Assembly: GCF_964204865.1 (NCBI RefSeq)
Contig: NC_135260.1
Span: 9,982,001 to 10,046,000 of the forward strand
DNA length: 64,000 bases
Reading direction: 5' to 3'
Source: Styela clava
Taxonomy: Eukaryota
Positions 2,621 to 64,000 of this stretch are shown here, piece by piece. The position numbers and the translations under genes are program-made. Numbering within the stretch: the first letter of the stretch is position 1; the number at the start of each line of letters is the position of its first letter. Under the pieces are notes generated by a model, which was not told the origin of the DNA, ran no database searches, and saw only the letters and a list, made by a program, of their open reading frames with translations.

Positions 2621-5600
2621 ATGGCAGAGGGAGATAACTCAGTCTCTGATGATGACTTGAATCAGCAGAAAGGTGAATCTGGTAAGATATTATTGACAAT
2701 CTGAACATAAATAGTTGGATTAAAATTGAGATTTTTATTGTTTACATTTTACCAGTTTGTAATCTCTTGGCACCAGTCAACCAGTTGGTTTAATAATATT
2801 TTTTAATGGTCCTGTTAGAATGAAAAGTCATATTGGCACTACCTTACCCCATATAATTTACACGCTTGGAAGTGGGTGCCATATACAGATATAGCATATG
2901 GCTATCTATCATGCTGATCAAAAATGTGATTTTATAATTTATACCTGTATCATTATTTGTTTGTTGGCGAGCTTCAACAGTTCAAACACAGAAACAGTCA
3001 AAAGGGTGGTAAAATTACTCCAAGTTGGTACCTACTGTAAGCCTCCGTCTGATTGTATTGTAATATATAATACTGTAATATGTAGCGTTTTATATCTAGT
3101 TCATTTATACCAGTATGTAGAATTGTTATCCTCGAAAGTTGCAGGTGCGTAATACATCACCATGAATTTTAATGGTTTCAGTAGCTCTTCGCATTTCAGT
3201 AGTTGTGCATGACCTTGTTTTGAACGAATTTCCTTAAAAAATTACAGGAAATGGGATAAATTGCATTTGGTATTTATGCTTTTCAAGCTATCCATATCTA
3301 CTGCTCCAGCAGTTCTCAAACTTTTTCTTCGTGCTGCGCCAAACTTTTAGGGAAAAAACGCATGGCACACTTACACGAGAAAAATCAATTTTGTGATCGA
3401 TAATGTGTCTGAATTTTATGTCTTGCAAAGTTTGTAAACATGTAGGTCTAAGGAATAAAAGCAAAAGGTTAACTCTTTTTTTTCCATCTTGCCTGATTTT
3501 ACATTGAAATGCTAAAAAATAATTCATGTTCTCTAAACTCGGTTCAGCAGATAAATAAACTGCAGCTCACGAAATTGCATCGAGTGGTGTATATCCCTAT
3601 TGTTACATAACAGTAGAGACAGACATTATGTAACAAAAATTAAACAACATAAAAAGTGAAAAGAATTTATTGATTCAAATACACAGCATTCAAAATAAGA
3701 AACAATAAAACAGTTATAATAATTACAATATGTAAAATATTTAATTATATTTCAGTTATGTCCAATACAATTTTCGCGGCGTACCCTTCGAGAACCGCTG
3801 TACTACAATATTAATTTCTTCATTGATTTATTCAGGCTTCTTTGATCATAGGCCGCTCTTCCTATTATTTTCTCAATGCTTCGTAATTTTGAGATTAATT
3901 ATGATTTTCATTTTTTACAACAGGTACAATAAGAGAAGGGACTGCACGAGTACACATGAAACTTTTCCCAAAATATGGTTTCCTTGTTCCTGATAATCCA
4001 CTCTCCATGGGTGACACAATCTTTTTTGGCCTGACAGCTCATGTAGATGCTTCAAAAAAGTATATTGCAGATCTTCGTGAAGAGCTCTACCCTGATCAAA
4101 AAGTAAAATTCATGGCTGTACCCGTTGAACGCGATGGTTCTATAAAATGGAAGGTAAATATTTGTCTCACACAAAAATAGGATAGGATTTTTATTTTCTC
4201 TCCGGGAGCGAGGAGTCCAGCAATCCTTTTGTACATATTATCACTCATGGGATTTGTACCAGCGAACCCACACAAGATGATCGAAGGTGCGGTGAGCATA
4301 TTCCTAACGCTTACGGGAGCATGATACGCCACCAATACTTAGTTTATATCTACAGTTAGCCTTTGGTGCAAAAATACTGTGCAACAACTTTGTTGTTGTT
4401 TAAATTAACTTTGTTAAATTCATAATCGGCTTTATCATACTTTGTTGGCAGTCTTGGCCCGTCACATTAATTTGGGCGTTTTATGCAAGACTTGTCCTAG
4501 GCGCAGGAATTTGAATGGGAAGTCTAAAACATATTTGGGACATTATAAGTAAATGATGTCGGAAATTAATTTTGTGAATAATCCAGTGTTTTTCAACCTA
4601 TGGGTCGTGAGTTCAAAGCTGCGTGGCCTAAAAATCCATTTTGGTCGCCTGTTTGTCATCAAAAAATTATTGAATTTATTTTCTAGGTAATATAAATGTA
4701 TCTTTTGTATTTGACATTGAATTGTTACTCAGGTATAATTGGATATGTGAGAAAAATATTAAATCGGAAAAGCTTGTTGTGAACGTTAAAACTGATTCAA
4801 TTGAATAGGTTCCTCTTGCAATTTTTATTTTTCAACCGAAATTAAATGATATTCACACGTCACACCACTTTACTTACCGTAAGTGAACTCAATAATTTTT
4901 GGAAATTTGAACCAATTTTTAGTCTCTGATTATCTCTGACAATTCCAACGTGTCCCCGAAGCTCTAAGTTATTTATTTATTATTTATTTTCAGGCATTGG
5001 TGGTTGGTCCTTTACCTGATGACCAACAGGATGTTCCCAGAATTATAGGTATGTGTTATTGCTTCTATTTATTTTTTTTTTGTTTGTCTTTTGTGCCATT
5101 ATACTTTATATTTAGAGGAGGAAGGAGAGGAAGATGGTCAAATCTGGTTAACTTGTCGAATTCATCCAAATTTACAGCCAACACATGGTTTTGCTACTCC
5201 AGAAGGTGGAAATCAATATCATGACAATGTTTATTTTAGTTTACGTGAGGTAAATTCAAATTTAATTTTTTTTTTATTGTAATTTTCTTTTATGTCCCAA
5301 CATTCACTTTTGTAGGCATGTTTATTGTTTTTCCCAAAATATAGACAGTATATCTTGGCATTTCAGTATTCACATGCAAAAATCCCCTTCATTTTCGAGT
5401 GAGTGTTGTGACCTTGCCCTGAGCAATCATCTTATAAAAATATAGGCCTATATACATTATGAGTTACCAAATAAGGAATACATGCACAAATATTTAATTG
5501 TATTATAGAATGAACCATTACATCTATATTTTTGTAACAAAACAATATTAAAAACAAATAGAAATTTCCTTAACAATACGTGTCAAATGATATCAATATT

Positions 5601-8600
5601 TAACTAATTTCATAAAATAATAAATACTCAGTTTTACTCACACTCACACTAAATACTCGGTTTTTATTCTGCCAAGTGTGGCGTTTTGGTTTTGCAAACT
5701 CATAGCTACTGCTCAGACTAATTTTTCCCCATGACTCGCAAAGGCTATCGGGACTGCTTTGGACCGCTGTGTCCATATATTTGGGCTTTGCTCTTGCTCT
5801 CTTGTTAAGTACCGGTAATAATTTTATCAGTTTAGATTTTTTGTGTGGCCCTTCAATTCTCAACTGCATTGAAATAGGGTCTTCAATTTCGTTTCTTCAG
5901 GCAACTGACGGTCTTGAAGTCTCCGTTTCTGATTTGACTTCCGTATTTTCTGCCGGAGAAAGAATCAAAGCTCTTTGTGTGTCTGCTGATCCTCAATTCA
6001 AAGCTAAATACAGAGCATTGAAAGTCTGCAAAATTCCGGAGTCTGCAGATGCTGATTCGGTATGTATGGGTTTGAAAAATTGATCTGAAAAATATTCACG
6101 AATCCTATTTACTGTCAACTGTTTCAATAAACTTTAAAACTGTCTATGCATGTATGAAAGTTTTGTAGTTCTACTCTATGATAGGATTTACAAGTTTATC
6201 CCACTGGAGAGGAAATACTATTAGACAGCATAATCACATGGCTGACCTATGGCCTCTCATCCAGTTACTAGTCCATGTAGGCTCTATCATTATTTGATAC
6301 TGGTATTATTCTTCTTTGCCTATAGTTTGCAGGCAATTCCTATATTGGATTGTGTAAATCTAATTGGAAAGTCAACCAGCTGTAATAAACTTTCTGCTTT
6401 ATCAAATTTATACTGTAATTTGTTTCCAAATTTTTATCATGAACATCGAATATTTAATATCACAATGTTTGATTATTTAATATTTGTTCTCCTTTATAGA
6501 CTGCAAATAGTGATACTCCCGTTTCCAAGAATTCTGCTGAAGATTGTTTGCTGGTCGAAGAAACTGATCAAAGCGCAGTGTCATGGATATATGAAGTTCT
6601 TAAAAGCAAAGATAAAATCAAATTAACAAGCCTAGCAGGAGATTTAAGTCACAATTCCGATATTCGTTCTGTGGTACAACCCCAAAAGAAATCTCTAAAG
6701 CGTTTCCTTGCAAAGTATCCACGTTTCTTCACTATTAAAGAAGATATAGTCAGCCTCGCTCCAAATTGCCCGCCAATTAACTTCAAACCAGTCAGAAAAT
6801 CAAGTGATACATTTCCCAGAGATGAGTATGTTCTTAACAAAAACTGGTCTTCTGAAGACGAGTCTCTCAACAGCCCTAGTGCATCTGAGAGTATACCATC
6901 TGGCATGTCATCACCTATATTATATACAACACATAATTTGAAAACATTGGCGGATTCTTCGTCTCGCTTCACCATGAGCATGCTGGCAAATATAGTCAAG
7001 TCTTTGCCAGAACCAATGAAGATGTCTGAAATTTTTAAACACTGTCAAAAGCAAGGTTGGGAAGGAATGAGAAGTATGGCAATGTTGGCACAAGTCGTTT
7101 CCGACAACCCAACCTATTTTTGCCAGGACGAGAAAGGATGCTTGCTAGTTACTGCGGAAGGAAAAAATCTCTCTGTCAAACAAGCTGATGTTAATAATAT
7201 TAAGACGACAAAAAGTTCCGTAAATGGTACTAACCATCCATTAACAAGTTCTATAATTGTCAGTGCTCCCAATGTTGAAACTACAATAGGTCAAGGACCG
7301 CTTGGAAGCTTTAACCACTCTTCAACTGCATCTGCATTTTCAATCTTCTCTCCACTATCGCCTCCAAAGCCTCAAGAGTCATCTTCATCACTGATAACAC
7401 CTAGTTTAGGATTTGGAACATCTGCCTTCAACCATACTCAGTCAAATGTAGGAATAAATCGAAAAGCATACATGCCTATTAGCACCAATTTTCTTGGTCT
7501 GACTCCATCATATCAGGTATAAATTAAATGATTCTTTATTCCCATCTCATTCTCTTCTTGGTTAAGTGATAGCTGGTAACACTGGTAGCAAAAAGGTTTC
7601 TTATTTTGTCCGTAACTGTAATTAAAATTTTTTTGTTCAACTCTTTCAGTGTTAAATGTAAGACTATAGCTAGATTCCATTTTCAGTGTTGGAAAATATG
7701 TACTGTTTTGCTAAATTGTTGTTAAAGCAATAAATTGCCTGAAAATAGTGCTCTAATCACTCTCAATTCTTTGATATTTAAAGTATATTTGATAGGATAT
7801 TTCGGTGTCACTTTGGTTTGCGATCGCACTTGCTCAAAACATGATCTCAATCACATACCAGGTGTTGCCACTTCGGTATGATTTTAAGCTCTCAATGAAT
7901 TCCAAACCTTATCCTAACTGAGATCACACCTTGTTGAGATTGCTTACTAAAATAGCATCGATATTTTCTTTATATTTTCTAGTCACATTTCTTCCAAGCT
8001 TGTTTGGGTTTGATCTTTTTGTTCCCAAATTGTCTTGTTTTAAATTCTCACCTCTTAGTCTCACTGATCATTTTTGGTGAGCTAGTGGTGATGGTGTGAA
8101 CTGTGAAGACACAGTGACAGTACGTTGAGCACCCCTCTCCTTTTATTTTTAGGCTGACAGATCCAAATCCACAGCAAGTAATAATTTTGGAAATAATTCA
8201 TTCCCTTCAAGTCATGTTTTACCTGTCGCCCATACTTCTTCAACTACTTCCTTGACACGACTCAGTAATGGATATGTAAGTTTACTTTGTTTGAAAATGT
8301 GAATTCGATAGCTATTAATCATAAGCTCGGATATATTTATTATTATGTGTTATTTCAGATCACATGATCACAATAGAGTATCTGACATACAAATGTTCAC
8401 CATTTGACATGAAAAATTATTGCCATTTTCTGAATGCACAACCTATTAATTCAATATATTTTGTTCAAGAAAAAAAATATAATGTAAATAGAAAAATTTT
8501 TGGCGTTCCCAGAAGTGGACCACGTTGAGAAACACTGCTTTACACTACTCACCTATGTAAAATCATATTTAGGTATCTTTTCAATATTTTCGGACATTCG

Positions 8601-11347
8601 TGAGAAGTGGAAAAAACATTGGGAAGCATTCATAATTTTCTTTATTACCTTGCTGATAATTTGCATCACAAATTACATTTACCAGATTTATCACAGTGAC
8701 AATGAAGACTTATTAGATGACAAATTCAGATCTCCAAAATCAGTGACATCTGCGAGTCATTATAATGAAGAGGAGAGTCAATTTTTGTCCGTGGTTGCTC
8801 GAGGAATTTGTCCTCACGCTGTGGGTGGAGGTGAAGAAGTTTTCAAAATGCTGAAAAAAGAGCTCGAAGCACTCGGGATATCATTGTCAGACAACGAGGG
8901 AGGAAACACAAGCGGTACACTGTCACGTCATCTATTATGTTTGGAAATGGATGTGGGAAAGAAACCAAGAGCAAAGTAAGCAGAATAGGATGAAATTTAT
9001 ATATTTTTTGTGGGGGGGGGGGAGAGGAAAATGTAATTGATATTGATATATTATATTTTCTAGGTTCCAGTCTTTCACACCAAGTGGAAAAATCAGCAAA
9101 ACAACTGTGACATTATTGTCAGCTGAAAGAATAAGTGAGGCTGCTCTAGCTAATATGCTTACCTTGTCACAAGCAAATGTTAACATAACAAGAGTTGGAA
9201 GACTTCTATATGGCATAAACAAAGCTTATCATTGTATAAGGTAGAACACTTCCTATTTCATTACTAAAGATGCATTTGTACAAGTGATATTCTTGTCATT
9301 GTATGGTATTAAAGCCCGACATTCAAAAATAGAACTCTTTGTTTGAACCATAGTGAATTTTGGGTATTCCTGTAGTGTGTGTACCATACCAGGTTAGGGT
9401 TAGGCCATAATTTTATTTCGATTTTCCTTATTTCAGTTCTATTGCGAGTTTGGGGACTGTCTGTGTTATACAAGTGAATATACCCCCTGCCCATAGGTTT
9501 CAGTCCCTTTACACAACTTAATGTAAAATAGGCGAACAAAATTAGTCACCTCCGTAACTGAGTGAAATGCTTCCTGCTCTAAATTCTTTCAGAGTCTGAT
9601 ATTTCACTGCAAAATTCGCTGTTTTTCACAAATCCCTGGCATACTTTCACAGCATTTAGGACAGTACTTCTAACATTTGACTGGAAGTTTGCTGGCATTG
9701 TGATCTTCATTTGGCCTTTGTGTGAATATATTTGAGTACTTGTCCCTTGTTTTCGAATAATTCTTTACTATTTAAGAAAAAATATTATAATTTCGAATAC
9801 CAATTATTTCAATTATTATTTACAATATTACAGATTTTTATAGAAATATATTCCTGCTTTTCTTTTCAGAATGCTAACAAATGGTATTGATGAGATTTCT
9901 GGCTGTACTGTAAGTTTCAAGAACCAAGATGCCCCCGATATCAGAATGTCTGATCATTTGCAACTTGGAGAAAAGGGAAAAGTGAAAATAATATTGAGTC
10001 ACAGTAGTCAGGGTACAACCTCAAGTGCTGCTTGTGCATCATTGAGAAAACATGCTATCGAAAAATGTGTGAATTCAACTGTTGTTGTAGTAGACTTGGA
10101 GGGCCAGGTTTGTGCATTCTACTGATATATATACCCTCTCCTTACAAAAATATTTTCAGGGTCTTTGTGTGTTATTTTTCTTAACATTAGCATTGACCGA
10201 CGTGATCATATCAGTCAACTGACCTTTATGCCCATATGTTATCTTGTTTTGCAGATTAAAGTAAAACCGACTCTTTTCATTTGTCCAAATTAGCTTTTCT
10301 ATTCTTATACAGTTCTTTTATACTTTAACTTTACTTTGGGTGGTATGCATAACATCATGTTATTTTCTTTTCTTCAGATTTTTGGATTTGGCTGTCATAC
10401 TTCTGAAGTTCGTCGCATGATTTGTGGAAGCTTAGACATGCAGCAACGACATTTAAAGGAAACTGTTCATCATCATCCCAGTTTAGTTGTTGCAAATTCT
10501 ATCGATTGTGTCGAATCTTTAAAATTATTGAAGCGAATAAATGCTAAAGGTAAGTAGCAGATGCCTGAATGGTAATTATGAATGTGGCTTTAGAAAGGAT
10601 AAAATGGAATTTACATATTTATCTTGGGGAGTGGAAAGTCGATAAGGCGCCTTAATCATATGATGAGCCACGGCCTCTCGTCTTGTTACCAGTCCATGTT
10701 GGGTATGAGATTAGTTAGCCAGTTATTTGTTTCCGGCTTGATGTTGGAGGAAGACCTGCAGTTATGTAACTGACCTGCAGTTACGTGAACCTTCCTATGG
10801 CGGAGAGAAGTACAGCAATCCTCTTGCACATAATTATTGCCTGAAGGCTGAAATAAAGATTTGTGCTCTGGTGTGAAAAAAATTATTTTCATTTTTTAAC
10901 CTGATATTCAGGCTCGACGTAACATCTGCTTAAATATTGCATATGCATAGCACTGTTCTTCATTTTCCAGATTAACCAGTTTAAGTCTATATTCCACTAA
11001 TTTCTCACTTGTTACTGTCATTCCTAGTACCCTCGTGTTGTGTACTTTGTGCGCAATTTTTACAATATTTTCGATTGTCTTTTGTGATTTTCTTATACTA
11101 TCCAGAAACTTCACGCGTATAGGTATTAAAATATATTTCCTCACTAAATTTTACCTTTTCTCGTAAAACATGATATTGATTAATCTGAGTTGTTAATTTA
11201 AGATTACCTAATCGAGCATCCAGCTTCCACATCCACACAATAGCTTGCGCTAAGTAATTTCATTTCTATTTAGGAATTTCCATATATGCAGAGGTCACCA
11301 AATCATTGGAAAAAACTGTGAGAAATATATTTAATGATTGTACATAA
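2621..11347 (+). CDS. ~909 aa putative RNA-binding protein: 2 cold-shock-like OB folds + Egalitarian/LIN-66-like winged helix + Ser-rich linker + ACT-like/alpha-beta C-terminus
   Basis: Exons 2621-2681, 3924-4153, 4994-5048, 5116-5249, 5901-6059, 6500-7516, 8153-8275, 8686-8975, 9064-9240, 9870-10107, 10378-10549, 11274-11347. All introns GT-AG with compatible phases, total 2730 nt, AATAAA near 11505-11525. OB-like repeats KLFPKYGFLVPD..TIFF..DLREELYPDQKVKF..KWKALVV and PTHGFATPE..NVYF..DLTSVFSAGERIKA..KYRALKV. Winged-helix-like segment KLTSLAGDLSH..DIRSVV..KKSLKRFLAKYPRFFTIKEDIVSL. Confidence 0.8.
3307..3800. mobile_element. Non-autonomous hAT-type MITE in intron 1 of gene 1
   Basis: Ends CAGCAGTTCTCAAA (3307) and TTCGAGAACCGCTG (3800) are inverted repeats. 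Flanks tactgctc/tactacaa form only a degenerate 8-bp TSD. Confidence 0.55.
4177..4330 (-). mobile_element. tRNA-derived SINE, internally deleted copy (head joined to tail)
   Basis: Minus strand has a box-B-like GGTACAAATCCC, then AGGATTGCTG (shared with the 10596-10840 copy), then the tail AAATCCTATCCTAT. Confidence 0.6.
6177..6281 (-). mobile_element. SINE 3' fragment (same family as 10596-10840)
   Basis: GATAGGATTTAC..TTTATCCC..GGAGAGGAAA..TAATCACATGG..GGCCTCTCATCCAGTTACTAGTCCATGT aligns with 10596-10700. Confidence 0.7.
10596..10840 (-). mobile_element. SINE body and 3' tail
   Basis: GC-richer intronic block that overlaps in sequence with both the 4177-4330 and 6177-6281 copies. Confidence 0.7.
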
Positions 11348-15195: not shown

Positions 15196-18061
15196 TCACT
15201 TATTTGTTATTTCGGTTCCTTTTGATGAAACTAGCATCGATTGAAGTCGAACTCTCTTCTTCCATACAACATCTACAATATTCGAATACATTAATGGATT
15301 GAGAACACTGTTTATAGGCAAAATAATGATAGCTGTAGCAGCATAAATTTCAGCCCTCGCCTTTATTGCGCCGGTAAAATTTAATAACGCTATGATACAC
15401 AACGGCATCCAACAACAAAAATCACTGGCAACAAGGCGTATGATTTTCTTCTGCATACTCGAACTTCTATCAGCAGTACTTCTAATTTTACTTTTCTTAT
15501 TAGACTTTCTATAAATGGCGATGTAAGCAAGCATTATATAGATGAAAATGAAGAAGTTTACTATCACGATCGTGAATGAATATCCCCACATCATTTCTTT
15601 TGTTGTAACATAGAAGTTCGGTAAACAAACGCTCTCCTGGGAGTAGTATCCATAAAATCCACGAATGCGATGAGCGGGGAAATTTTGCTGCAGGTGATAA
15701 TTAAGTTTACTCCAGTCTTTTGGCAAATTAGTATTAGATGCGTTTGGAGAAAATGCGGTGAGAAGCGTTGCAAATTGTCTCACTCCGTTGAGGTGAACAG
15801 TGCGGGATGAAATGAACTTCGAAGGGATGAATGCTCCATAAGTAAAGGCTTCTTGCATATGAGAGGAAAATGGTATAAGACCTATGAATAAAGCAATACC
15901 CCAGGCTAGAGCTATTGCAATCGCCGCCCATTTAACTTTTATACTCCGTACCGTGAGGGGATTATGCACAGAGACAAGCCTGATCGTTGTAAGTAATGTT
16001 AGCATAAATACAGATGCTTCCGAGGATATGATGGAGATTGCACCGAGCCACACACAGGCATTACTTGTTCGCCATTGAACATCGTGTCTACAATATGCAC
16101 CGGCAACTGTACTGTTTTTTACAGCTATCCCAAGAAGATAGATAGCCATTAACAAATCGGCTATAGCAAGATTAAATAGAATCAGATGATTGCATTTTAG
16201 TAAACCTTCAGCCTTATGTATTCTATCATAATCTCTGATTTTATCAATAATCATATAGCTGTTTCCAAATATACAACAGAACCCGACAAACCAAACCCAA
16301 AATTGAAAGAACGGCGATGCAATCAAATACGCTCTTGATCCAATGGGTTCGTTGTCTAGATCTCTCGGACATTCGTCAGCACCTTCGTGGCAGTCTTGCA
16401 CTCCATCTCCTACAAACCTGTTTGGGACTGATAGAGGAGTTCCTTCCTCGCATTGGTACCTTGAAGTGCAGTTGTCTTCATCGCTTCCGTCGTCACAATC
16501 TTCATACCCGTTACATTTTAGAACGTTATCAATACTGATTAGACTTCCACTCTGGCAATAAAATCTACCTGGACAATTAGTTTCTTCTTCTGGGATACGT
16601 GGATTACAAGAAGACCATTGTCCATCACATATGTGCTCAACAGTAAGGTTAAATGTACCCGTACTTGTATTACATTCTCGAATAAACGGAACAGTAGAAA
16701 AACCTAAATAGCAAAAATCCGATGTTGTGTTTGTTTTATTTACGCACTCAAGATTACACTCGTCCGATAGATCGTAACACTCCGGTCGCCCATCGCAAAG
16801 CCTTGCCAATGTTCGAGTTGAGTTATCTACATCGCCCGCACATCGCATAATCCGACGAGATGAATGAGAACTGCAGTATTTTTCGTCCATCCTGTCTTTG
16901 CAATCTAGCCTTCCATCACATATTTTGTCGGTGGTTAACTCAGTAGTAATATCACAGACAAAAGTCCCCAAAGTACAATTGGTTGTTCCCCACTCTGCTT
17001 CTCGTGTACAATAGCGCGAACAAAATTCTTCATTACGATTTTCGCACGGACATTCGTCAGATAAATCCGAACAATCTACAACTCCATCACATTGTTGTAA
17101 AGTAGATATCCTCATGCTTTTATCAAAGCAGTGAAACAATCTAGAATGTCCATCTGTAGTTTTTCCTTCGTCTTCTTCGTTGTTGCAGTGAGTAAAGCAA
17201 TCAGACACATGTCGTTGTGGAAGAACGCATATGTCACCTCCTTGTCCGAGTGGGCATTTGAACCCGGCCACGTGACGTATTTCATCCGAACCATCTCCGC
17301 AGTGATCAATTTTATCACATGCGTATTTTGTACTAATACATTTTCCATTTTTGCATTGATACGTTCCGTTTATACAGTCGCCGTTATCGCAAAACTCCTG
17401 CCATGACCAACATTCTGGCCTCTTTTTTCGGCAACCCCTCTCATCACTATAATCTCCACAAGAATCAATTCCGTCGCACACTTTTATCTGCGATAAGCAT
17501 TTACCATTGCCGCAGTTATATTCTCCAAAATTACAAAGGGGATCAGTTGTAGAAGAGTTACTTTGAGGAGTAGTATCTGTTTGACAATTCCCCGGTAATA
17601 TACCTGCATGTGATTCAAAATTTCAATTTTATTTTACCTTAATTCAAATAACATTTAAAGTTATAGCCTTATGTGAACATGGTATAAAATGTGTTCACAA
17701 CTTGTAGCTTCGACGAAAGAAAAATATCTTAACAAATAAATATTTTTTAGCTTGCTATCGAAATATAAAGGAATCAAATAACACATATAGTTTAACTATT
17801 TTTTGTAACCAACTTTCATTAACATTTTTATGTTTTATGACGCTTATGCTATAAGCCTGATGATTTGGTTCAATAATTAAATTAAATTAATTGCCGCCTA
17901 TTATAGTCATATGAACACCTATGATTTTTCATTGCTGAAAAGAAAGAGCAAGCAATCTACTGAACTATCTAATTCTATTTCACATTATATCACGTCATGT
18001 GAAGTTACTTCAGTATCTTACCTTGTGTGCATGTTAATAATAACAAAAAAGCAAGTCGCAT
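15196..18061 (-). CDS. ~815 aa class A GPCR, RXFP/LGR (GRL101-like) 7TM with ~9 N-terminal LDLa modules and no leucine-rich repeats
   Basis: Exon 1 18061-18022 (MRLAFLLLLTCTQG, signal-like, donor GTAAG) and exon 2 17603-15196 (phase 1, 2408 nt). Repeated CDGxxDCxDxSDE motifs. 7TM hallmarks WVWFVGFCCIFGN, NLAIADLLMAIYL, WRTSNAC, SSEASVFMLTLLTTIRL, SVCLP, SDFCCWMP, LPINSVLNPLMY. Confidence 0.93.
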
Positions 18062-21000: not shown

Positions 21001-22696
21001 TATTCTAAACTACACTCATACATGTTTGTGTACGTGTATGTTTGTTCATTTTTAGTTGCTTTGCCATGGTATAAAGTTAGCAGCTTTGCCAAAGTGTATA
21101 TAAGGTAGTTTGAAGTTTTCGATAACTTGACCTTTCAGAACGTGAATGTGAATCTCAAGTAGAGTTGCGGTACAATCAGCGATATTCTGTGTACTGTGTG
21201 TATAACACATATCAAACTAACATCAGGCAACATTCTACTCAAAACATAAACTTTGAGGTGTTTGGGTTAATACTCTTTTCATTGGTGACTTTTTTTTAGA
21301 AATGGTATGCTGAGATTTGAATTTTGCAATGAAACGTGCCTAACTGACTGTTGCCTAACCCAGAATTCTCAAATCCAATTTATCTAGGAAGCTGTGTTTC
21401 AAATTAACGGTTCGCAGTATATATATATATGTACTGTTCCAGTTTATTCACTGGCGGTCGTTATGAGAGAACACCTTTCATCTTATATATAAAAAAGGCA
21501 TAAAAGTGGAGTAATGAACACTTTTGGCAAATTTTAAACTAAATTACTTTCATATGATGTAGCTTACAAATGGATGTTATCGCACGCAACCCCATCTAAC
21601 TACCAATCAAGAAAAATGTTGAGGAAGTTGATCAATCCTACAAACTACAAACGCGATTTCTTTGAATGACGATACTTTAATTTTTTTATTTATTTATAAT
21701 ATTTTAATTAATCAGATTATCTCTTGCGTTTTTGCACCCGTTTACCCCGAAAGGACATTTACTAGATTTGCGAGTAGTTCAAAATTCATTCTCTGCTTTA
21801 GTGTGTGATTGTCAACAAAAATACTACTTCAAAAACGTTTTTTCACGGATCTCCGTGTTTAAACTTCCCTCCCTCATACTGTTTCCGCGCGGTGTTTCAA
21901 AAAAATTGGTATATATTATTTGGATTATAATATATATTGGGGGGCAAATTGCTAAAGTGAATATATGAAGTGGGATTCGTGCTATGTTGTGGGTTAGGAC
22001 AGATATAGTGATCTGGCAGTAGGTCATAGTATTCATATGACGTAAGGTTTATACACTTAGAATACATAATTTCAAGGCACCCCTGTTTCCCTGATATCCG
22101 CTGAGTTGGAGTCCCTCGTCACTACTGACATCGCCATAGCGCCATCAGTTGGTACAGCACCTGCGAGTCAATGGTTATATATTTTCTCGTAGTTGCGTGC
22201 TCGATAAATATGGTTTAATGTTTCTAAATTTTGATATCTGTATGCCCGGAAGACATCATCCACCTCGAATCAAGATTTCTCTCAGAGCATCTAACATATT
22301 CTTTCTGTTGGGGTTGTATAGGAAAATTATTTGGTAACACAGTAACTGTGAAGAGGGTGGTGGTATTATTTCTCAGTTATTAAAACTAAATAATCCCTTA
22401 CATATACATTGATTTTAATAATGTGATTGATGCAAATACCTTTTTTCTGACAGCATATATATGAACAGTTTCAAAATCCTGATGTTTAAAAAAGTTCGAG
22501 AGTAATCCACGGAAATTGATTTTATTTTCATTACACCACAATCTCCCACAATTCCCCCTTAACTCACACAAAGAGGATTTTTAATCATAGCCTTTATAGT
22601 AACGTACTCATTGCCTCTGTATATAGTGTTAAAGGGTATAAAACAACAATTTATTTTCAAGATACCACGATAAATGATTATTTTGTCACGAAATTA

Positions 22697-25600
22697 ATGA
22701 AGAGTTTTCGCAAAAATCAACAAAAGCTGGATATTTACGCCATGACTGATCCTAATTCTTGTCAAAACGGAAAGACATATGATTTAGATAGGTATTCGGA
22801 GCCTCGTGTTGTCCGTCACAACAGAATTTATCCCAAAGTTTCTGCAAAGGATCCATGTGGAACAATGCCGATTAGAAACAGTTATCCCCCGGTTTCAACG
22901 GAACTTAAACCAATGAGAAAATCTTGCATTCCTTTATGCAATATTGAGAGTAGTTCGGGGGCTTCATCTCATGCCAATTACACATGGAAAGAACCATCTC
23001 CTTGTACTATTGTAAGTGAATATCCTTCTAGTCAATACGATCATAAGTCGGAACTACTGAATAGAGATGATAATCGAATAAAAATTGACATTCATTCGGG
23101 AGATACTGGACTTCCGCCATATTTTGCAATAAAAGACAATCAGGCCCATTCTGAATGGAGTTCTTACAGTCCAGTGTCAAGATTGCGTTGTACGAACGAA
23201 AATTTGTCGTTACTTCATCGATTTCATTCGATTAATACAAGCTTTGAAAGTACTGATAGAAACAGCGTATATGATCCATCGGATTTGGCTAATACAATAG
23301 AAGAAAGTATTATCGACGAAAGTTGTATTCAAAATGACGGAACAATCAATGCCGTCGGAGGTATTCCGCGTAACAGATCAAGGCCAGACGTGGCGACCAG
23401 GCATGTCGTCGTGACAAGACCGAAACGGAGATCGAAGAATTACTATCGGAGGAAACGGGCAAATAAGGTAGCATTTACGTTATTCTGATTAATCACGAAC
23501 TATAATTTTAAGTTAGCGATGGTACCGACACAAACACCCATACATAAAATCTAATACACTAATGAAAATCCAAATCGCATGGACACGAAATTGAGCGATG
23601 GCACTCTAGTCTAAGACTACAGATAAATCTGAAAACGAGATAGCGATAGGAGACCGCCGACTTATCGATCTAGCGGCGTGTATCCTTCGCTCCCACTCAA
23701 TAAGCTTCCGGTCCGAGATATGATGAATGCGCATACAAAATTTGGCGCAGATTCAACCTCGCTTTCGTGAGATATCGCGTAACATACGAAAGTGTCAAAC
23801 AGACAGACATAAATACCTATCAACATACTTACCGATCGAGATCGATAAGTAACAAATTAACAAGAAAATGCAAGTCGACGATTAAATTGGACGGACCGTT
23901 GCAGCAGTCAATGTTTTAGTCTTTATTTCTATATATTATAAAAACAAAGAGATGAAATTATTTAAAAATTTATTTATGCAAATCACAACCAAGGTAAAGA
24001 AAAATACAATATGCATGCAAAAAAATCACACAATAGCAAACACTATTTCTCGAATTTTTTTAATATATGTCTACATATTTTGTCTCATAATATATACTTT
24101 ACTGTGACACACAGGTAAAAAATTCAAATCCTAAGTTTTATAAATGGGATTTTGACAGTACACAGTGGCCGCAGAAAGTCATGATATCAACTGCTAAAAG
24201 TAAAATTTAATACACAACAGTCTTGCCAAAGTTTTTTTAGAATTTGTAAATATTGAAAATCATACAAGTTATATATTCGTATTTTTTCGAGAAAAGAGTC
24301 CAGCTGGAATTTCAGAAAAAGCATAAAAACATCACTCACATGATCATATTAAATCATATTACTTTCGCCTACAATATGATGACCATTTTTGATTAAATTT
24401 CGTTTTTCTTCGTATGAAAATGAACGTTTGGTAATTTCAAAATGGAACGCAGTTTGTGCATTCATAAAGTACTAATTACAACAATAAAAATATCAATTTC
24501 GATCTCTAGATTCCTAAAGAATAAAATTTGTTTTAAACTATCTAATATATTTTTCAGTTTTGCCTGATAAACTTTGCTGATGCCAATGCAAGCATAAATT
24601 CTTTGTAAAATCGATACAAGTTTGATTAGGCTGCGTCCAATTTCATTTAGGCTGTCTGTCTCGCCCAAGAATTGACTTTTGGAAAAAGGTTGAATGTAAC
24701 TTGTATTTTGCAAACGTGATGTTATCAATCTTATTTTTTATTCTGATAAAAAAGCTCAGGCCTTTCTCAATGATTATAATTTAAAGTAAAGTATGTGGAA
24801 GGAGAGCAGAATTTGTCACTATAGGGATCGACCTTGCTTTCTGCGGTTCCGCTATATAGATTCCTATTCCTTCCTACAGTAATCTCAATGCTACGGTTCA
24901 CGGGGATAAGCTGAACGAATGAATTTACTTCTAGATATGCTTTACGCTATGCAAACATTTTACAAAAAATCTCAAATGTAATCTCAGTATTGTGACATCC
25001 TATAATATGAACAAAACCGTGTCCGGAAAATTCGCCGCATAGGGTTATTGTTGGGGTATGCTCTTAAATAACGAACCTTGTTTAAATAAAAATGTATTTC
25101 AAAAACATAACTGTTTTTATCACAAATACTTGCTTTACAGCAAAATGCTCTTGCGGCGATATTTCCTATGCGGCAAAATTTCATGCGGCGAGATTTCCCA
25201 CGGCGAATTTTCCTAAAACCGAACAAAACACGTTTCAATGCACATGCATTGTGTAGACGGTTACTGTAGTCTGGCGTAGTCCGGCAGTTCGGTATAGTTC
25301 AAACATAGAAACGTGATGATAAGATCCATATCGCAGCCTTACTATTTATTGTAGCGCTACACTATTAAATGCCTATTAATTAATCTTCTAACAATATATA
25401 TATAAAAAAATGAGTCGGGTAGGACTATATGAGCATGCCAACTGAAAGGCCGAGAGCATTAGTCACGAACTGCAAACCAAGCGGACATGCAATCCTCTAT
25501 TATCTCATTGTGTATGGATTGTCTGTTTGGTAAACCATTAGAATAGTTTAACTCGTCGTCGTTATCGATCGTTTTCTCCATGCCTTATGTTCAAAACAAA

Positions 25601-50500: not shown

Positions 50501-50551
50501 CCATGTAACATACACGTTTTGAATCTTAACCGACCGCTTATTATGTGATTT

Positions 50552-51851
50552 ATGACAACCAGAATGGAATTACTGAAGACATTACCTGGAGTTACTGTCA
50601 GGAAACACGAAGTTCAATATCCACACCATTACAATAACGTACCCAGCAATGTAACGGTGCTGAATGTATTGCGACCCTTCTCGCAGCAGCGAGTAGGGTC
50701 ACTGCACGCAAATGTAAGCCCAAGGCTTGTCTACAGCGCTGGCGACAGCTATATAATGAATTTCGGTGGCGATCCTATGCTTCGAGGAGATTCAATATTC
50801 TATCCTAGAAAATCAGATCCCAAGCCGATTTTGAAGAATCAAAATGCAAACAATAGCCCTTACGGTAGCAGAGGTTTGTTTCTAGAACATAATGCTGCTA
50901 ATGTAAAGAGAGAAGGCGCAAAGTCACCTGGTATAACACGAAAGTCTCAGAAACATGTAACCGTTAATAACGTATTAAACCAGTCTGAACAGCACGTGAT
51001 TCCAAAAACTCCAAGTAAAAATGTAACATTCAAATTGGAAAATGAAGATAGACGCAGAAACGTTGTTGAAGCACAGTGGTCGCTCGGGATCTCAAAAATC
51101 AACAAACCTCTACGTGAGCCAAGAAAAATTCACTCAGAACAATACAGGTGAAAGGAAAAATTTCAGTTTTCAAACTTTCAAGCGCAAGAAACTCTAACGG
51201 AACGTCGTTTTGGACAACTGGGTTACCACTTGTTCTCTTTAAAATGTACATTTATGACAGCAATAGCTGATTATTTTGTATACACCAAGAGCATATTTGT
51301 AGTTGACCTCTCCTTTTGCAGATCTAATGAACCACGCCGTGCTCTAACTTCAGAGCAAAGCAGTAGAAAGTACTTTTTGCCACTCCTGCTGAAAAGAAAT
51401 GCTAAAGGAAATCATGTAAGTAAGACACGATTTGGAAAAATCAAGTAGATGTGAATTAACAAAGAATTATGTTCAGAAACAATTTGGTCAAGCAGCTCAA
51501 ATTTCTGACTAGCTACTGATACGCCAGCTCAACTATCCAATTTCAAAAATCTTCGGTGCAGAAGTTGACCATGCATTTTCTAGTTCATTTATGTTGTAAA
51601 CTTTGTAATCAAATGTATTTGTTCTAGTGCATCTGAAATCATTTCAACATAAACGTTCCATGATAGTATGTACTGTTATACAGATTGTGCCTGCGACCGC
51701 CACTCCTTCTCCAAGACGTCCACAAGGTGTTGGCGGATTTAATGATCGAGGACCGTTACGATTCCGCTCGATGGCAGACGAGTACAGAAAAACACTGAAC
51801 CAACCTGGGGTAAACAAAAGAGGGCTTCAAAGACCAAACGTCAGTGCGTGA
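50552..51851 (+). CDS. ~285 aa basic, likely disordered protein of unknown function
   Basis: Exons 50552-51147, 51322-51415, 51684-51851, GT-AG, phases 2 and 0 compatible, 858 nt. AATAAA at ~51906. No recognisable globular domain. Confidence 0.72.
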
Positions 51852-55485: not shown

Positions 55486-58291
55486 TTAGATATATTCAGC
55501 TGATGAGGGCTTTGGCTTTGGTGGGTTGTATGCGTACGGTCGTCTATCGTCGTCATCATCAGAATTCCAGGATGCACAGCACATAACAGCTCCACCTAAC
55601 ACGCTGATAACCATTGATATCTGGAAAGAAGTAGAAATTGTTATTCTCAAAACTGTACAATGGCGTGGCACAATGGCACAGAGAACTAATGTTGACCCAA
55701 ACTCAGTCAGCAAATATAATATGCAAATCTACTTTTGAGATATTGTACCTGCAATAAGTACGCAAGTACATATTTCAATAGTGTAAGTTACATTATGAAT
55801 AATGAGTTTTCCGACTCGAATATTGTACAAACGACTGATAACTAAAAACCAAGCATGAATTGTATATTTCTCAAGGAGGGAAACTAGTGAAACAAGCAAA
55901 ATCGAGTTACGAATTCACTCGTAATTCTCATAATAAATTAACATTCTTGAAAGACTGACTGATCGTGAACAGGTGAAATGAAGCAGAATAATACTCACCC
56001 ATCCGACAAAAAGAGCTTCGCCATAGACGTATCGAATACCGGACACTGAGGCGATAGGGTCTTGGTAATCTGCTAAGACATTTGCTGCAAACCACGAAAC
56101 CGCAATACCCAGTGACACTCCAGCAATAACATGGCACACACCAGCAATCATGACCTTGAAAATGAATACATTCATCAGAAAGTGTACGAGTTAAAAAATT
56201 AAATTTAACTACTAGAATTACGGTTTATAATCAAAGTTATTTCGAGGACGCAAATTAGTTGATATTGACATCACACGCTTCAGAAATATTGTCAAGTTAT
56301 ATAAGTTTACAATTCAAACATATTTTTCAAGGTTTTTTGACAGTCTTACTGCAAGGCCCGGACATCACGAGAAATTATAACTTATACCTCGTATTTCCAA
56401 CAGCCAATTATGGCACTTCTTGAAAAAACTCGAATTTTGTTTTTTTATGGCAAATAGGAAATTTCTGATTAACATTTCAATACAAAAATTAGACCCAACA
56501 GAATACTAGATTTTGCGTTATATAAAAATAAATATTATCTAATATTCCCAAAAAATATTTCATGTCTAGTGTCCTTACCAACGGATCAAACAGTTTTTTT
56601 TTTTTAAGTGCTATTTAGTGGTAAAAATTTCCCCAAAGTTGGAAATGACAGCAATCTCGTACAAATTTCATGGAACTTTTTGAAATACTGTGAACATAAT
56701 TCATTTCCATTTACAGTAAACCCATTCATTTTCATTGTGACATCATATTAAGTGATTTCACCAGAATTTCACATGACAAAGTGCGTGGGCCCATAAGGCT
56801 TTAGAAACGAAATTCTATCTTTAAAGCACTCCGTCACAAAATTTAGTCATTTTCCGTCAACCATGTCTCGTTTTTATTTCCGCACGAATGGATTACAATC
56901 CGAGAGAATTAACTTGTATTTTACTCTGGTAAGGAAGAGTGAGAGAATTTTCTTTTATATTATTATAACATCAGGAACTAGCCTTTTTTCTTTTCAATGC
57001 GCAGAAATATGCGCAGAAGAAAATTGTTCATATTCAAATGCGCACATTCATTACGTCATAAAATGGAATCTAAATGAGGTTTTGGGCAAATTTGTATAGA
57101 GGAATATTGGTATACAATAGAGAATATCAAAGTTAACGACCCAAAATAGATTTTACTCAACTAATTTACTGTCGCTTATGCTTTTATCATTTAAATGAAA
57201 AATCATATATTATCTTTATAAGTCTAATAGCTGCTAGTTTTAGTGAATTTTAAATATTGACTGTCGTAATAGGACTGGAGCGAAATATTTTAACTTTTTA
57301 AAAATTTTTTTACCATTCTGGCTTTCATTTTAGGGTTGTCTGATGCAACTGTTGTACAATCGAGTCCGAATGTTCCCAGAAGAAGACCAATGAAACCCAT
57401 AGCAATTGCCAAGCATGTCGTAGCTCTTGCACCCTGTTAAATATAAATTATAATACATATGCATTTTCATTCAGAGAAAAAATTGGCGTGAATTGTAGAT
57501 CTTACACCAATGTTTTTGACAAGAACGTTTAAGATTTTATTTTCCCAAAAATACGAATGAGAGAATATTCATAAAACTTTAATCGAAAGTTTGAATAAGT
57601 ACTATTTTCCAATGAAAAATCGTCGTCTGTGGTACAATGTGAAATAACGACGAGCCTGCTGAATTTCAATTTTTCTAGGACGCTTTACACCTACGAAAAA
57701 AAGATATATATACCTGAAGGGGGACGGGCAAACCCAAGAAAAACGAATCGTAGTCGTTGCAAGTCCAATGACCAGTTGCTTGGTGGGTGCACCTCACCCA
57801 TAGACCAGTCGTCCGGATAATTGATTCGATAACCTCACCTTTGAAAATAATCATTTTGAAATAACTATTTTGTTCAATAAAATAAAAATATGGGCTATTG
57901 AAATTATAAGAGATAGGACATTTTATTACAAAACCAGACCACGATAGACGCCATAAAAAATCCTAATCTAGTTTTATTTCATTACTCTTGTAATATTTAC
58001 ATATTTAAAATTTTATGATACAAATAAAAGTGAAGTGATAAAATATAACAGTATTATAATTTTATTGTGACAATTACAAGCCAGGTCGCTAACCATTCGT
58101 AAATAATATTTCGACAAATGTAATTGTCCCAACACTTTGCCGGCATTAACATTTATTTTGAACTCCTAAATAAGATTAATACCTTCTAAATCATTCTTTC
58201 TCCACGACGGCAGAGCACACGTGATGATTGCCATCAACCAACCAATAATAGTGACACCATATCCACAAACTTGAAGAGATCCGTTAACCAT
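55486..58291 (-). CDS. Claudin (classic type), 214 aa, paralog A
   Basis: Exons 58291-58183, 57838-57714, 57433-57314, 56154-55999, 55620-55486 (645 nt). Signature LPSW..GLWVRC..C..YDS, LQGARA, GLDCT, VSWFA, YGEALFVGW, C-terminal EYI PDZ-binding motif. Confidence 0.93.
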
Positions 58292-60606
58292 CTTGAGTTG
58301 TTTTTATAATCTTATAATTGAACTTATAAATTTCTTGTAAAAACGATCACAATTTAAACTAAAAGATTTGTTATAAAATAAGAATGAAATTGTTAATCGT
58401 ACGTTATAACACATTTTAGGTGGGATAAGATTTACTTATTTATCCAGCGTGTAAAAATTGTAAGACTTTCATGTCTAAAAAACGTAGACAATACAAGATC
58501 AAAATGAGATTCATTATATACTGCAAATTATAATTCGTAAACACACAAATCTTAACACAGGTACTTAAAAATCGCAAATCCGTTTCCATCCTTCTACGTA
58601 GGAAGCCTAAGAGCCCCACTCAGCATCGTTGCCTATCAACAACGCCCTAAACTCCTTTGTTACGTCGAATCTTTTTAAGAAAAAAATGTGACGGCAGTAA
58701 TTGTTGTCGACCACGACACACTAAGCAGCACGACCGAGTCTAACTAGACTATATCCAAAAAATGAGACCCCCGTTTCCTTCGGACCCATATAAATAACAA
58801 CAAAAGAGAGTCTCCGATATTCGAGCTATCTCACTCCCCCACAAAGGCCCGGATGACGAAAAGTGAGTCAAGAGGCACACTAGGGTGCTTACAACTTCAT
58901 TAGACCGTAAACTGTTCAATTTCGCAACTCGTACGGTGTCTTTCTCTTCGTTATCTCCGACTAAATTATACCAGTTCGGTCCAGTAATCACATAGAACGC
59001 AAAAAGCTGGTTGGCAGTATACTTGTTATTATTATCATCATTATTACATTCCCCTCTGTGATTGAATAAGTCGATCGCGTTAGCTGCGATATACCACTAT
59101 AGCATTGAATCATGGATGTAGCGTGTCCATGGGCACAATATTGTCATGGCCCAAAATTGACCAAAAGTGCTTTCAGTATAGCTAAAAATCACCATTTGAA
59201 AGTACTATTTTGATATAAGATATTGATAACGATTCTATATTATGATATGCCTTCAATGCGCCCCGCATAAGAAATGATTCAACCCTGATGTTCAATCTTA
59301 TCGATTTCAAAAATGCCGAAAGCCAAACGTTTAAAATTACAATACAACCCATATAAAAACATCGCCTCATCGTACTATCCACTAATACGGTCTAGCTTCT
59401 GGTGCCAGCTTGATGGTCAACCAAGCAACTTATATTTTACGCTATCCACGCAAAATTACGGTTGTTCTGGCAAGACAGCGACGGCAGGATAATGAATACA
59501 ACATACAGTGCCGTACAATTCTTTCTAAAAGCCCAAGCGTGCAGGCAATTTACAGGTAAACACCTTATTTTCAACCGCAGACCGTGTTTTCATTCAAATT
59601 CTAATACAGTAGCCTATATATCACAATAGTGAACTGGTAGAATCATGTTGAGACAGTCAGCTCTCCAGGCCCTGGGCATGGAACATTTCACTGGGAGCAA
59701 AATGCTCTCATACTGACAACTGCTAAGACTAAGCCCAAAGCTCTCTAAACAATGTTTCTCTTCCTGACCGCACATATAAGATGAGAGAGGGATGAATTGG
59801 AGGTCTGCACAAATCGGGACTGCCGTTATTCAATCTATAACATAGGAAATTGTCGCGCCGTTATAAAGCAATTATTATCGCTCCCGTCGTCCTTTTTGTG
59901 TGTTAATACCATCTAAAGCGGTTCAAAGCGAGGTTAATCAAACACAAAACAAAACACTAATGATGTGGAAAACTCCTTTTATTTATTTAAGTAATCAAAG
60001 AGTAAATGAATGATATATCGTACAAGAAAACGCGAAACAAATTCTTAAAATTGGGGCAAATTAATTATGGGAAGTAATAGTCTGGGAAGTAAAATGAACT
60101 AAGCAAAGGCTACCAAGGCTGGCTGAAAATACCGTATGGTTCAGCAGTTTGAGTGATGGTGTGCAAAGTAGCCAAGGGAACGCTCAGCTTGACGTTACAT
60201 CGAAGACTCATGATGCCAATTCAATATCGGATTACGAGTAATCAACACGATCCTCTATTAATTTCCTCTGTCAGCATGAGTACCAGATGAGCAAACCGCA
60301 AACCTCAGCGATGCATTTTCATAAGTCGTTAAACAAAAGAATATATTAAATAGTATTCGAAATGCAGTTTTAATAATTAAACGATATGCTTTTTCAATGT
60401 TGGTTTTATTTCTATACACGGAATACCGATTTCCATAAAACAGAAATATAACACTAAATTCGCTTATAATTTACATTCCATATTTGAATAGAGGTGTAGC
60501 TAATACTAATGTCTATGTGCATTGTAAAAACTGCAAAAAATCCCGGACTTCTTCAATAGTTCATTTATTGTTCAACCAGCACCATTGAGGTCATAAGATT
60601 TGCGCT

Positions 60607-63343: not shown

Positions 63344-64000
63344 TTTGCCTTAGTTAGTTTTTATCAAAATCAAATATATATTTCTTCTCAAATAAACTAT
63401 AAAAGAGAAGAGAAATTGTATTTAAATGTAAATAAACTTGAAAATTTTAAAACTATATAAATAATAAAAAACAACTAATAATAATTATACAAAATATAAA
63501 TATAAAATAGTTTAGTTAGCTTGCTGACTACCTATTTCAGGTCGACTTTTGATTTTTATGTTATGAATGGAATAATTTTGTTTCCAATCATTCTTTGAGA
63601 AGGCCTAATTTTCAAAATCTGACTTCGAAACAAAAATTCTCACATAAGTGGGAGATTTCGTTTAATTTCATTCTGTGAACTTGTTTACTCTTCGAAAAGA
63701 GTTTCTAATCGACGTCGTTGCCAACGCCAGACCAGCAAACACCATTCTAAACACTGTATTCATCGAAATATATTCTCGCTTTCTAAGTGAATTGAATTAT
63801 TGATGCATCATAGGGCATACACCATCATAGTTTATGTTAGAAGGCCTTTTTTCTTTCGAAATGATCATTTCGTAGTATGTTATACACTTTAACAATCATG
63901 GATCTTAGATAAAATACAGGTATACTGTGAGTTTATTCATCGCCCATACTAGTTCAATATTTCTCTAAGAATGAGTGCGGAAACAGGAGAAAAGATGCCT

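Follow-up and report, generated by a model that had tools for sequence, protein, structure and literature searches.

We analysed a stretch of 64,000 nt from the ascidian Styela clava (contig NC_135260.1, positions 9,982,001 to 10,046,000 of the forward strand; the window, from whose first nucleotide positions are counted unless another contig is named). Its gene LOC120342626 encodes a protein of the domain order OB-OB-WH-WH-linker-dead ATPase: two cold-shock-like oligonucleotide-binding (OB) repeats, two winged helices (WH1, WH2), a low-complexity linker and a catalytically degenerate ATPase fold of the Ycf45/SpoIIIAA type. With its pseudo-ATPase derived from Ycf45, this architecture varies the theme known from Egalitarian and Egal-1. 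Judged from its sequence, the product would be a cytoplasmic mRNA-binding scaffold controlling translation or localisation of bound transcripts and a remote relative of Egalitarian, which transports RNA in flies, a reading to which we assign a probability of roughly 0.55.

Gene structure and expression

The features of the gene are as follows (aa, amino acids; pLDDT, predicted local distance difference test; RNP, ribonucleoprotein motif).

2621-11347 (+): 12-exon gene, 909 aa, one open frame, GT-AG at 11/11 introns
2621-2681, 3924-4153, 4994-5048, 5116-5249, 5901-6059, 6500-7516 (+): exons 1-6
8153-8275, 8686-8975, 9064-9240, 9870-10107, 10378-10549, 11274-11347 (+): exons 7-12, including the stop
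3929..5011 (+): OB repeat 1 (OB1), aa ~23-103, RNP1-like KYGFL, RNP2-like IFF
5136..6035 (+): OB repeat 2 (OB2), aa ~123-205, RNP1-like HGF, RNP2-like VYF
6551..6766 (+): WH1, Egalitarian type, aa 231-302, Pfam PF23713, pLDDT 89-96
6959..7165 (+): WH2, diverged, aa ~367-435, three helices and a hairpin, pLDDT ~74-89
7166..8763 (+): low-complexity linker, aa 436-619, 46% S/T/P/N, pLDDT <50, predicted disordered
8764..11332 (+): Ycf45/SpoIIIAA-type PilT-class ATPase fold, aa ~620-905, degenerate catalytic motifs
9997..10020 (+): Walker A loop position, aa 792-799, threonine in place of lysine, two glycines missing
10483..10506 (+): Walker B strand position, aa 864-871, Asp-Glu replaced by Asn-Ser

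LOC120342626 is a real, expressed gene. All 11 introns, with GT..AG ends, are joined in contigs of the runs X1, X5 and X6 from three studies, whose RNA status is a guess of the software, none of the runs with the gene being recorded as RNA, and whose contigs carry no tissue, stage or level information. Contigs of the DNA-like run X10 join 0/11. The product is XP_039267874 of Styela clava (P0001, annotated as 'uncharacterized'), from which it differs by 4 residues as counted by eye. Among the 40 variants listed, with 162 more beyond them, 16 of 17 coding variants are synonymous. High-copy repeats with very high contig depth are found at 9380-9550 in intron 9 and at 10560-10940 in intron 11.

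An earlier note on this DNA, made from the letters alone, had placed a chordate-like gene at 2621..6770. The source is indeed a chordate, namely an ascidian, the motifs quoted there are present in the spliced product, and the splicing it presumed agrees with the contigs of the three runs. Its start was correct; the end lies at 11347, so that its range spans only aa 1-303. The C-terminal third (8764-11332), a degenerate Ycf45/SpoIIIAA-type ATPase domain, had been passed over. A full-length match to a characterised family, named there as the finding that would speak against a new type of regulator, was not found.

Two cold-shock-like repeats

OB1 and OB2 are mutually similar, as had been noticed before. 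Their Smith-Waterman score is 96, whereas shuffled sequences average 22 and attain 43 at most, so that 0/2000 shuffles reach it. A profile of 17 repeats retrieved 46 matches from the PDB (E up to 10; best E 1.3e-4), the top 26 of which are named Unr/CSDE1, Y-box or Csp. When the profile was restricted to the 10 ascidian-type repeats, Unr was again first (E 5.9e-4). With a profile built from the central regions of 14 protostome Egal-1-like proteins, OB1 scores 18.2 bits and OB2 11.0 bits (shuffles ≤4.5). Both repeats are well kept in the orthologue P0002, with identities of 95% (OB1) and 88% (OB2). Atlas structure rows for the OB region are rich in cold-shock domains (CSD), yet stay under the Atlas naming bar. 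A single-sequence AlphaFold model (pLDDT 33) was set aside. By profile homology, OB1 and OB2 are cold-shock-like; a confident five-stranded OB barrel was not seen in the AlphaFold models.

Winged helices and linker

The Egalitarian-type winged helix anticipated in the earlier note is clearly recognised by Pfam, as aa 238-301 match WH_Egal (PF23713) with E 7e-13 and 49 bits at a cut-off of 27. WH1 scores 36.7 bits against a profile of repeat 2 of Egal-1-like proteins and 27.7 bits against repeats 1 and 3 (shuffles ≤2.4); by these profile scores it is nearest to the second winged-helix repeat of this group. The second, degenerate helix unit that had been noticed exists too, but lies outside the range given then. 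WH2 shows no Pfam match and an hhalign value of 44% to Egal-like repeat 3. Both units are modelled as winged helices by AlphaFold at the pLDDT values listed above. The fold match for aa 232-433 is provided by the Egalitarian-BicD-RNA structures, and WH1 and WH2 together align to residues 6-167 of Drosophila Egalitarian (Egl, 9rvy) with a Z of 10.5 and an rmsd (root-mean-square deviation) of 14.1 over 137 aligned residues. In Egl, Gly124/Ser127 sit at the minor-groove site of ED2, and ED1 binds BicD (PMC13186709). The linker that follows is only 53% identical to that of P0002.

The C-terminal domain is homologous to Ycf45-type ATPases

By eye, aa 620-905 resemble Ycf45. Atlas clusters named Spore_III_AA were obtained by features (0.87-0.89, lead level) as well as by structure (10/10 rows, template modelling score 0.60-0.64). 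A bacterial set of 80 loci was fetched with a sequence motif; 77 entered the profile and 3 were cut short. The retrieval motif is invariant in this set by construction, and most of the match falls outside of it. All six bacterial proteins tested carry Spore_III_AA (PF19568), PF25516 and the nucleic-acid-binding domain R3H. Against the bacterial profile, the eight full-length family proteins score 19.2-37.6 bits over ~200 positions (LOC120342626 itself 19.2 bits), up to 41.3 bits are reached in Ciona, and 800 shuffles stay at ≤6.3. Profile-profile comparison of family and bacterial set using hhalign yields 98.2%, E 3e-14 over 198 columns.

Structural comparison points in the same direction. With an AlphaFold model built without bacterial rows, the best Foldseek match is the archaeal RuvB-like / Holliday-junction helicase 5f4h (E 4e-7), and DotB, PilB, VirB11 and TadA are matched as well. 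VIA-align finds PilT at Z 12.1 (rmsd 10.2, 184 aligned). RecA-type cores reach Z 10-11, therefore the core alone is generic. Taken together, the C-terminal domain is homologous to Ycf45-type ATPases over ~200 residues, a stretch made up of core and N-terminal subdomain. The relation to SpoIIIAA proper is looser, as the bacterial set scores 73 bits against TIGR02858 with its cut-off of 281.

In the members scanned, the dead domain goes unrecognised by Pfam and NCBIfam, and a word-index search with aa 620-909 returned only the LOC120342626 product and one orthologue. Exon 9 had been considered by eye as a remnant of an EXD1/Egl exonuclease; this was dropped, the region aligns to Ycf45. Among the 120 of 695 matches listed for a bacterial query, long Ycf45 fusions were of bacterial-type architectures or a single plant protein, with no eukaryotic exonuclease-Ycf45 fusion among those listed. 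P0051-P0064 are bacterial Ycf45-type proteins of ~970 aa, most of them with PF14528 and PF14890, one being named intein/homing endonuclease. In a published list Ycf45 stands without an assigned pathway, and homologues of it are reported from Naegleria and from an oomycete (PMC3087521).

Catalytic motifs are lost, the sequence is kept

The Walker A pattern is present in 0/8 family proteins and in 77/77 bacterial domains, DE[ILV]G in 0/8 versus 71/77. Out of 104 columns near-invariant in bacteria, 16 (mostly Gly, Pro and His) are retained by seven or all eight of the family members. For another 43, no family member retains the residue; among these are the Walker A lysine, the Walker B Asp-Glu and four arginines, as well as glutamate and histidine of what we take to be the Asp and His boxes. 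PF25516 and R3H are absent: the protein ends at the core, and no such Pfam matches were obtained. At the same time the dead domain is 77-85% identical to that of P0002, versus 53% in the linker, and the preponderance of synonymous coding variants (16 of the 17 listed) fits its conservation. By these sequence comparisons, the C-terminal domain is a conserved, catalytically degenerate pseudo-enzyme.

Family and distribution

A search among 1.84 billion representatives resulted in 35 matches. Besides the query these are 6 orthologue-like fragments, 6 paralogues that carry the C-terminal domain, 2 ZNF598-like ligases sharing the modules, and 20 proteins or fragments of the Egal-1-like kind. Within these 35, the C-terminal domain has no match outside the ascidian-type set. 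Of the 34 others, 20 were looked up; where a species is given it is Ciona, Styela, Phallusia or Lingula, and no vertebrate is named. This does not contradict the type not recognised in vertebrates that the earlier note supposed, but is no proof of absence. Of the eight full-length family proteins, four are from named ascidians and four are presumed to be so by similarity. Ciona has two members, LOC100180871 and LOC100179491.

Three WH_Egal loci were found in the Styela genome, LOC120342626 and two paralogues arranged tail to tail on contig C10, both of which have a single OB, additional winged helices and the C-terminal domain of the family:

C10:19362174-19368100 (+): first paralogue
C10:19380904-19375545 (-): paralogue LOC120339144 (P0027), Gln/Asn/His-rich long insert after the OB repeat

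The introns of the C-terminal domain are shared with P0027 in position and phase (4/4), and all five introns of P0027 are joined in X1 and X6. Beside this pair (C10 ~19385000-19395000, minus strand) retroelement-like frames lie in pieces, which by eye are protease-, reverse-transcriptase- and RNase H-like.

In the two ligases, P0033 of Phallusia and P0034 of Ciona, RING_ZNF598 is accompanied by a WH_Egal-like domain at the N-terminus and by copies of the family's OB repeat at the C-terminus. Winged helices related to WH_Egal moreover cross-match Pfam wHTH_TTC3. A published description of the family or of its architecture was not found by a literature search that covered neither subscription journals nor bioRxiv supplements.

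Comparison with Egalitarian, Egal-1, LIN-66 and Ycf45

Egl resembles LOC120342626 in its Egl-type winged helices, two units being aligned to ED1-ED2 (PMC13186709). In both proteins these helices are also joined to an enzyme fold that is catalytically dead. In contrast, Egl has three winged helices, an exonuclease/XAD module and an xQT-type tail. The ascidian protein has two winged helices, lacks both other elements and adds two cold-shock-like repeats and the dead Ycf45-type ATPase fold. As the earlier note had proposed, there is no Egalitarian exonuclease domain: no Pfam exonuclease match is obtained at E up to 10, the only large C-terminal domain is assigned to another fold, and the rest is low-complexity linker. 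The C-terminal xQT-type pattern, which we equate with the dynein-light-chain-type motif of PMC12579938, occurs in 11/14 protostome Egal-1-like proteins versus 0/12 ascidian-type proteins or fragments. With neither exonuclease nor tail pattern in its sequence, the product is not a member of Egalitarian. Exonuclease matches in the Styela genome are three in number, Rrp6-, Mut-7- and (by eye) WRN-like, none of them Egl-like. The Rrp6/EXOSC10-like gene lies in a single long open frame of 810 aa and the Mut-7/EXD3-like gene in one of 1090 aa, and there is an exonuclease frame of 224 aa. According to a 2012 review, egl is limited to arthropods and nematodes and BicD is present in Ciona (PMC3361156).

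The N-terminal half is also related to the spiralian Egal-1-like proteins. They share the winged-helix family, and their central region is homologous to the ascidian OB repeat (hhalign 98.7%, E 2e-16); taken alone it weakly matches Y-box/Csp chains (14/15 rows, best E 0.025). In the study of planarian egal-1, this region of 67-71 aa was given no family in the available text, and the Egl N-terminal domain was described as 'not clearly in deuterostomes' (PMC12579938). The Lingula sequence used in that study, XP_013412851, is our P0012, in which the cold-shock-like region spans aa 333-402 with counterparts in its relatives. Egal-1-like proteins contain three winged helices followed by one OB and the tail motif, whereas the ascidian protein has the OB twice, in front of the winged helices, and one clear plus one diverged winged helix in place of three. 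Hence the pairing of cold-shock repeats and Egalitarian winged helix, for which LOC120342626 had been singled out, is present, but is also found in reverse order in spiralian Egal-1-like proteins.

C. elegans LIN-66 has one cold-shock domain within low-complexity sequence, is nematode-specific by BLAST and has no ATPase-like domain described in the available text (PMC11184513; 10.64898/2026.07.07.737059). For the LIN-66 resemblance suggested in the earlier note, an Atlas cluster with Pfam WHD_lin-66 was a single lead (score 0.79). The ZNF598-like ligases P0033/P0034 share the OB repeat and the WH_Egal-like domain, with RING and zinc fingers in place of the dead ATPase. Ycf45-type ATPases have intact Walker A/B motifs, PF25516 and R3H. 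LOC120342626 in contrast has lost the motifs, ends at the core, is eukaryotic and intron-bearing, and is fused to OB and winged-helix modules.

Proposed function

We suggest that the cold-shock repeats would grip single-stranded RNA via their RNP1/RNP2-like aromatics as in Unr/CSDE1 and Y-box proteins, and that WH1 may touch a stem of RNA in the manner of Egl ED2, its G260/S263 being paired with the Egl residues Gly124/Ser127 of the ED2 minor-groove site. Reach could be given to these RNA-binding heads by the disordered linker. PilT-class ATPases form ring oligomers. The dead ATPase might not use nucleotides at all and act as a nucleotide-independent platform for oligomerisation or partner binding which clusters the heads, in the place that is held by the dead exonuclease in Egalitarian. 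Since RNA binding by Egl takes two molecules and the exonuclease module, a multimerising tail is a plausible prediction for the ascidian protein. Both RNA binding by the OB/winged-helix heads and the scaffold role of the dead ATPase appear likely: every folded N-terminal module matches an RNA-binding family (Unr/CSDE1, Y-box and Csp; WH_Egal), and R3H was present in each of the six Ycf45-type proteins examined.

Several points weigh against this reading. DNA is a possible ligand of cold-shock and winged-helix folds as well. OB1 has no Pfam match, single OB sequences fall under the Pfam CSD cut-off, and AlphaFold with a 14-row alignment leaves aa 1-229 at pLDDT <50, the OB region being unfolded in both runs. 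The cold-shock call therefore rests on profile homology, whose E-values are modest; the OB fold of the earlier note is found by the profiles, but not by the model. P0009 of Ciona has no cold-shock repeat. The pairing of G260/S263 with Egl Gly124/Ser127 is derived from a weak pairwise alignment to 9rvy (E 0.083), in which this stretch scores just 1.1 bits. Moreover, the RNA pocket of Egl needs ED1, ED2 and the exonuclease module altogether (PMC13186709), and a fragment containing the exonuclease binds RNA alone (10.1101/2025.08.03.668247).

P0033 and P0034 join RING_ZNF598 to a WH_Egal-like domain and to the OB repeat of the family. Together with the wHTH_TTC3 cross-matches, this could mean that LOC120342626 works at the ribosome or in the quality control of RNA, beside the ascidian ZNF598-like ligases. 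We regard this as improbable, as the protein has neither RING nor zinc finger and common modules reflect domain shuffling rather than a common pathway.

Alternatively, the protein might be the ascidian functional counterpart of Egalitarian, linking mRNA stem-loops, e.g. of maternal postplasmic RNAs, to BicD/dynein. The Egl-type winged helices fit, the three genomic WH_Egal loci found all belong to this family, none of the three exonuclease matches is Egl-like, and Ciona has a BicD gene (PMC3361156). However, Egl binds BicD by ED1, and the ascidian WH1 is nearer to the second repeat; exonuclease module and xQT-type tail are missing. In addition, genome searches miss intron-split genes, so that a true Egl may exist separately. 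Such a counterpart is improbable in our view, too.

A nuclear DNA binder, with OB folds on single strands and winged helices on duplex, is decidedly improbable. Besides RNA, Y-box domains also bind DNA. Winged-helix transcription factors of the MarR and PadR types match WH2 at Z 8.6-8.9, and the best Foldseek match of the ATPase fold is a Holliday-junction helicase. Z values of this kind are common, however, and the specific family matches are Egalitarian and Unr.

Least credible is a C-terminal domain that still binds or hydrolyses nucleotide as a switch via non-canonical residues, for although a Gly-Thr-Thr remnant persists at the P-loop position of LOC120342626 and P0002 and Asp824, Arg808, His835, Arg841 and His860 are kept in 8/8, the Walker A lysine and the Walker B Asp-Glu are lost in 8/8 and the P-loop remnant is gone in six paralogues.

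Origin and significance

More speculatively, the mRNA-binding scaffold we favour may descend from an old eukaryotic protein with winged helices, exonuclease and Ycf45 domain, of which the exonuclease would have been lost and the ATPase inactivated in ascidians.

A different origin would be horizontal transfer of the ATPase domain from a bacterium or alga into the tunicate lineage, followed by fusion to animal RNA-binding modules. Consistent with this, the domain is unmatched outside the ascidian-type set among the 35 matches, tunicates have accepted transfers (PMC13390645), and neither PF19568 nor a cyanobacterial query found an intact Ycf45 in the Styela genome, although both searches also missed the known dead domain of LOC120342626; the PF19568 search returned a single unrelated P-loop open reading frame (E 0.86). 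However, in a tree including 13 of the 77 bacterial rows, with long branches, the eight family rows are split from the rest by a long branch (100/99), and no donor can be named from it. Neither ATPase nor ycf nor sporulation is mentioned in the main text and one supplement of PMC13390645. We consider a transfer rather unlikely.

Taking shared descent further, Egalitarian, the spiralian Egal-1-like proteins and the ascidian family could be remnants of one ancient eukaryotic RNA machine made of winged helices, exonuclease and a Ycf45 ring ATPase. Flies would then have kept the dead exonuclease and ascidians the dead ATPase ring, which would multimerise the heads and make the protein a chordate adaptor localising or silencing maternal mRNAs. 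This is a bold conjecture and quite unlikely to hold as a whole.

Independent of the origin, a chordate is now seen to have winged helices of the Egalitarian type, which a survey of 2025 had not clearly detected there, and the cold-shock fold is assigned to the central region of spiralian Egal-1-like proteins, which had no name so far. A small ascidian family keeps the fold of a bacterial-type pilus-motor ATPase as a conserved pseudo-enzyme. Maternal mRNAs are localised in ascidian eggs, and the two Ciona genes make a role of this family in that process directly testable in a standard model.

Other features of the window

Exon-sized frames at ~55900-63350 (-) are presumably claudin-like, as judged by eye from a motif; four pieces were scanned without a Pfam match. 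Open frames of 322 and 200 aa at 22520-23488 (+) and 50549-51151 (+) are likewise without Pfam matches. At 15196-17622 (-), a single open frame of 808 aa comprises seven low-density lipoprotein (LDL) receptor class A repeats and a rhodopsin-type seven-transmembrane domain.

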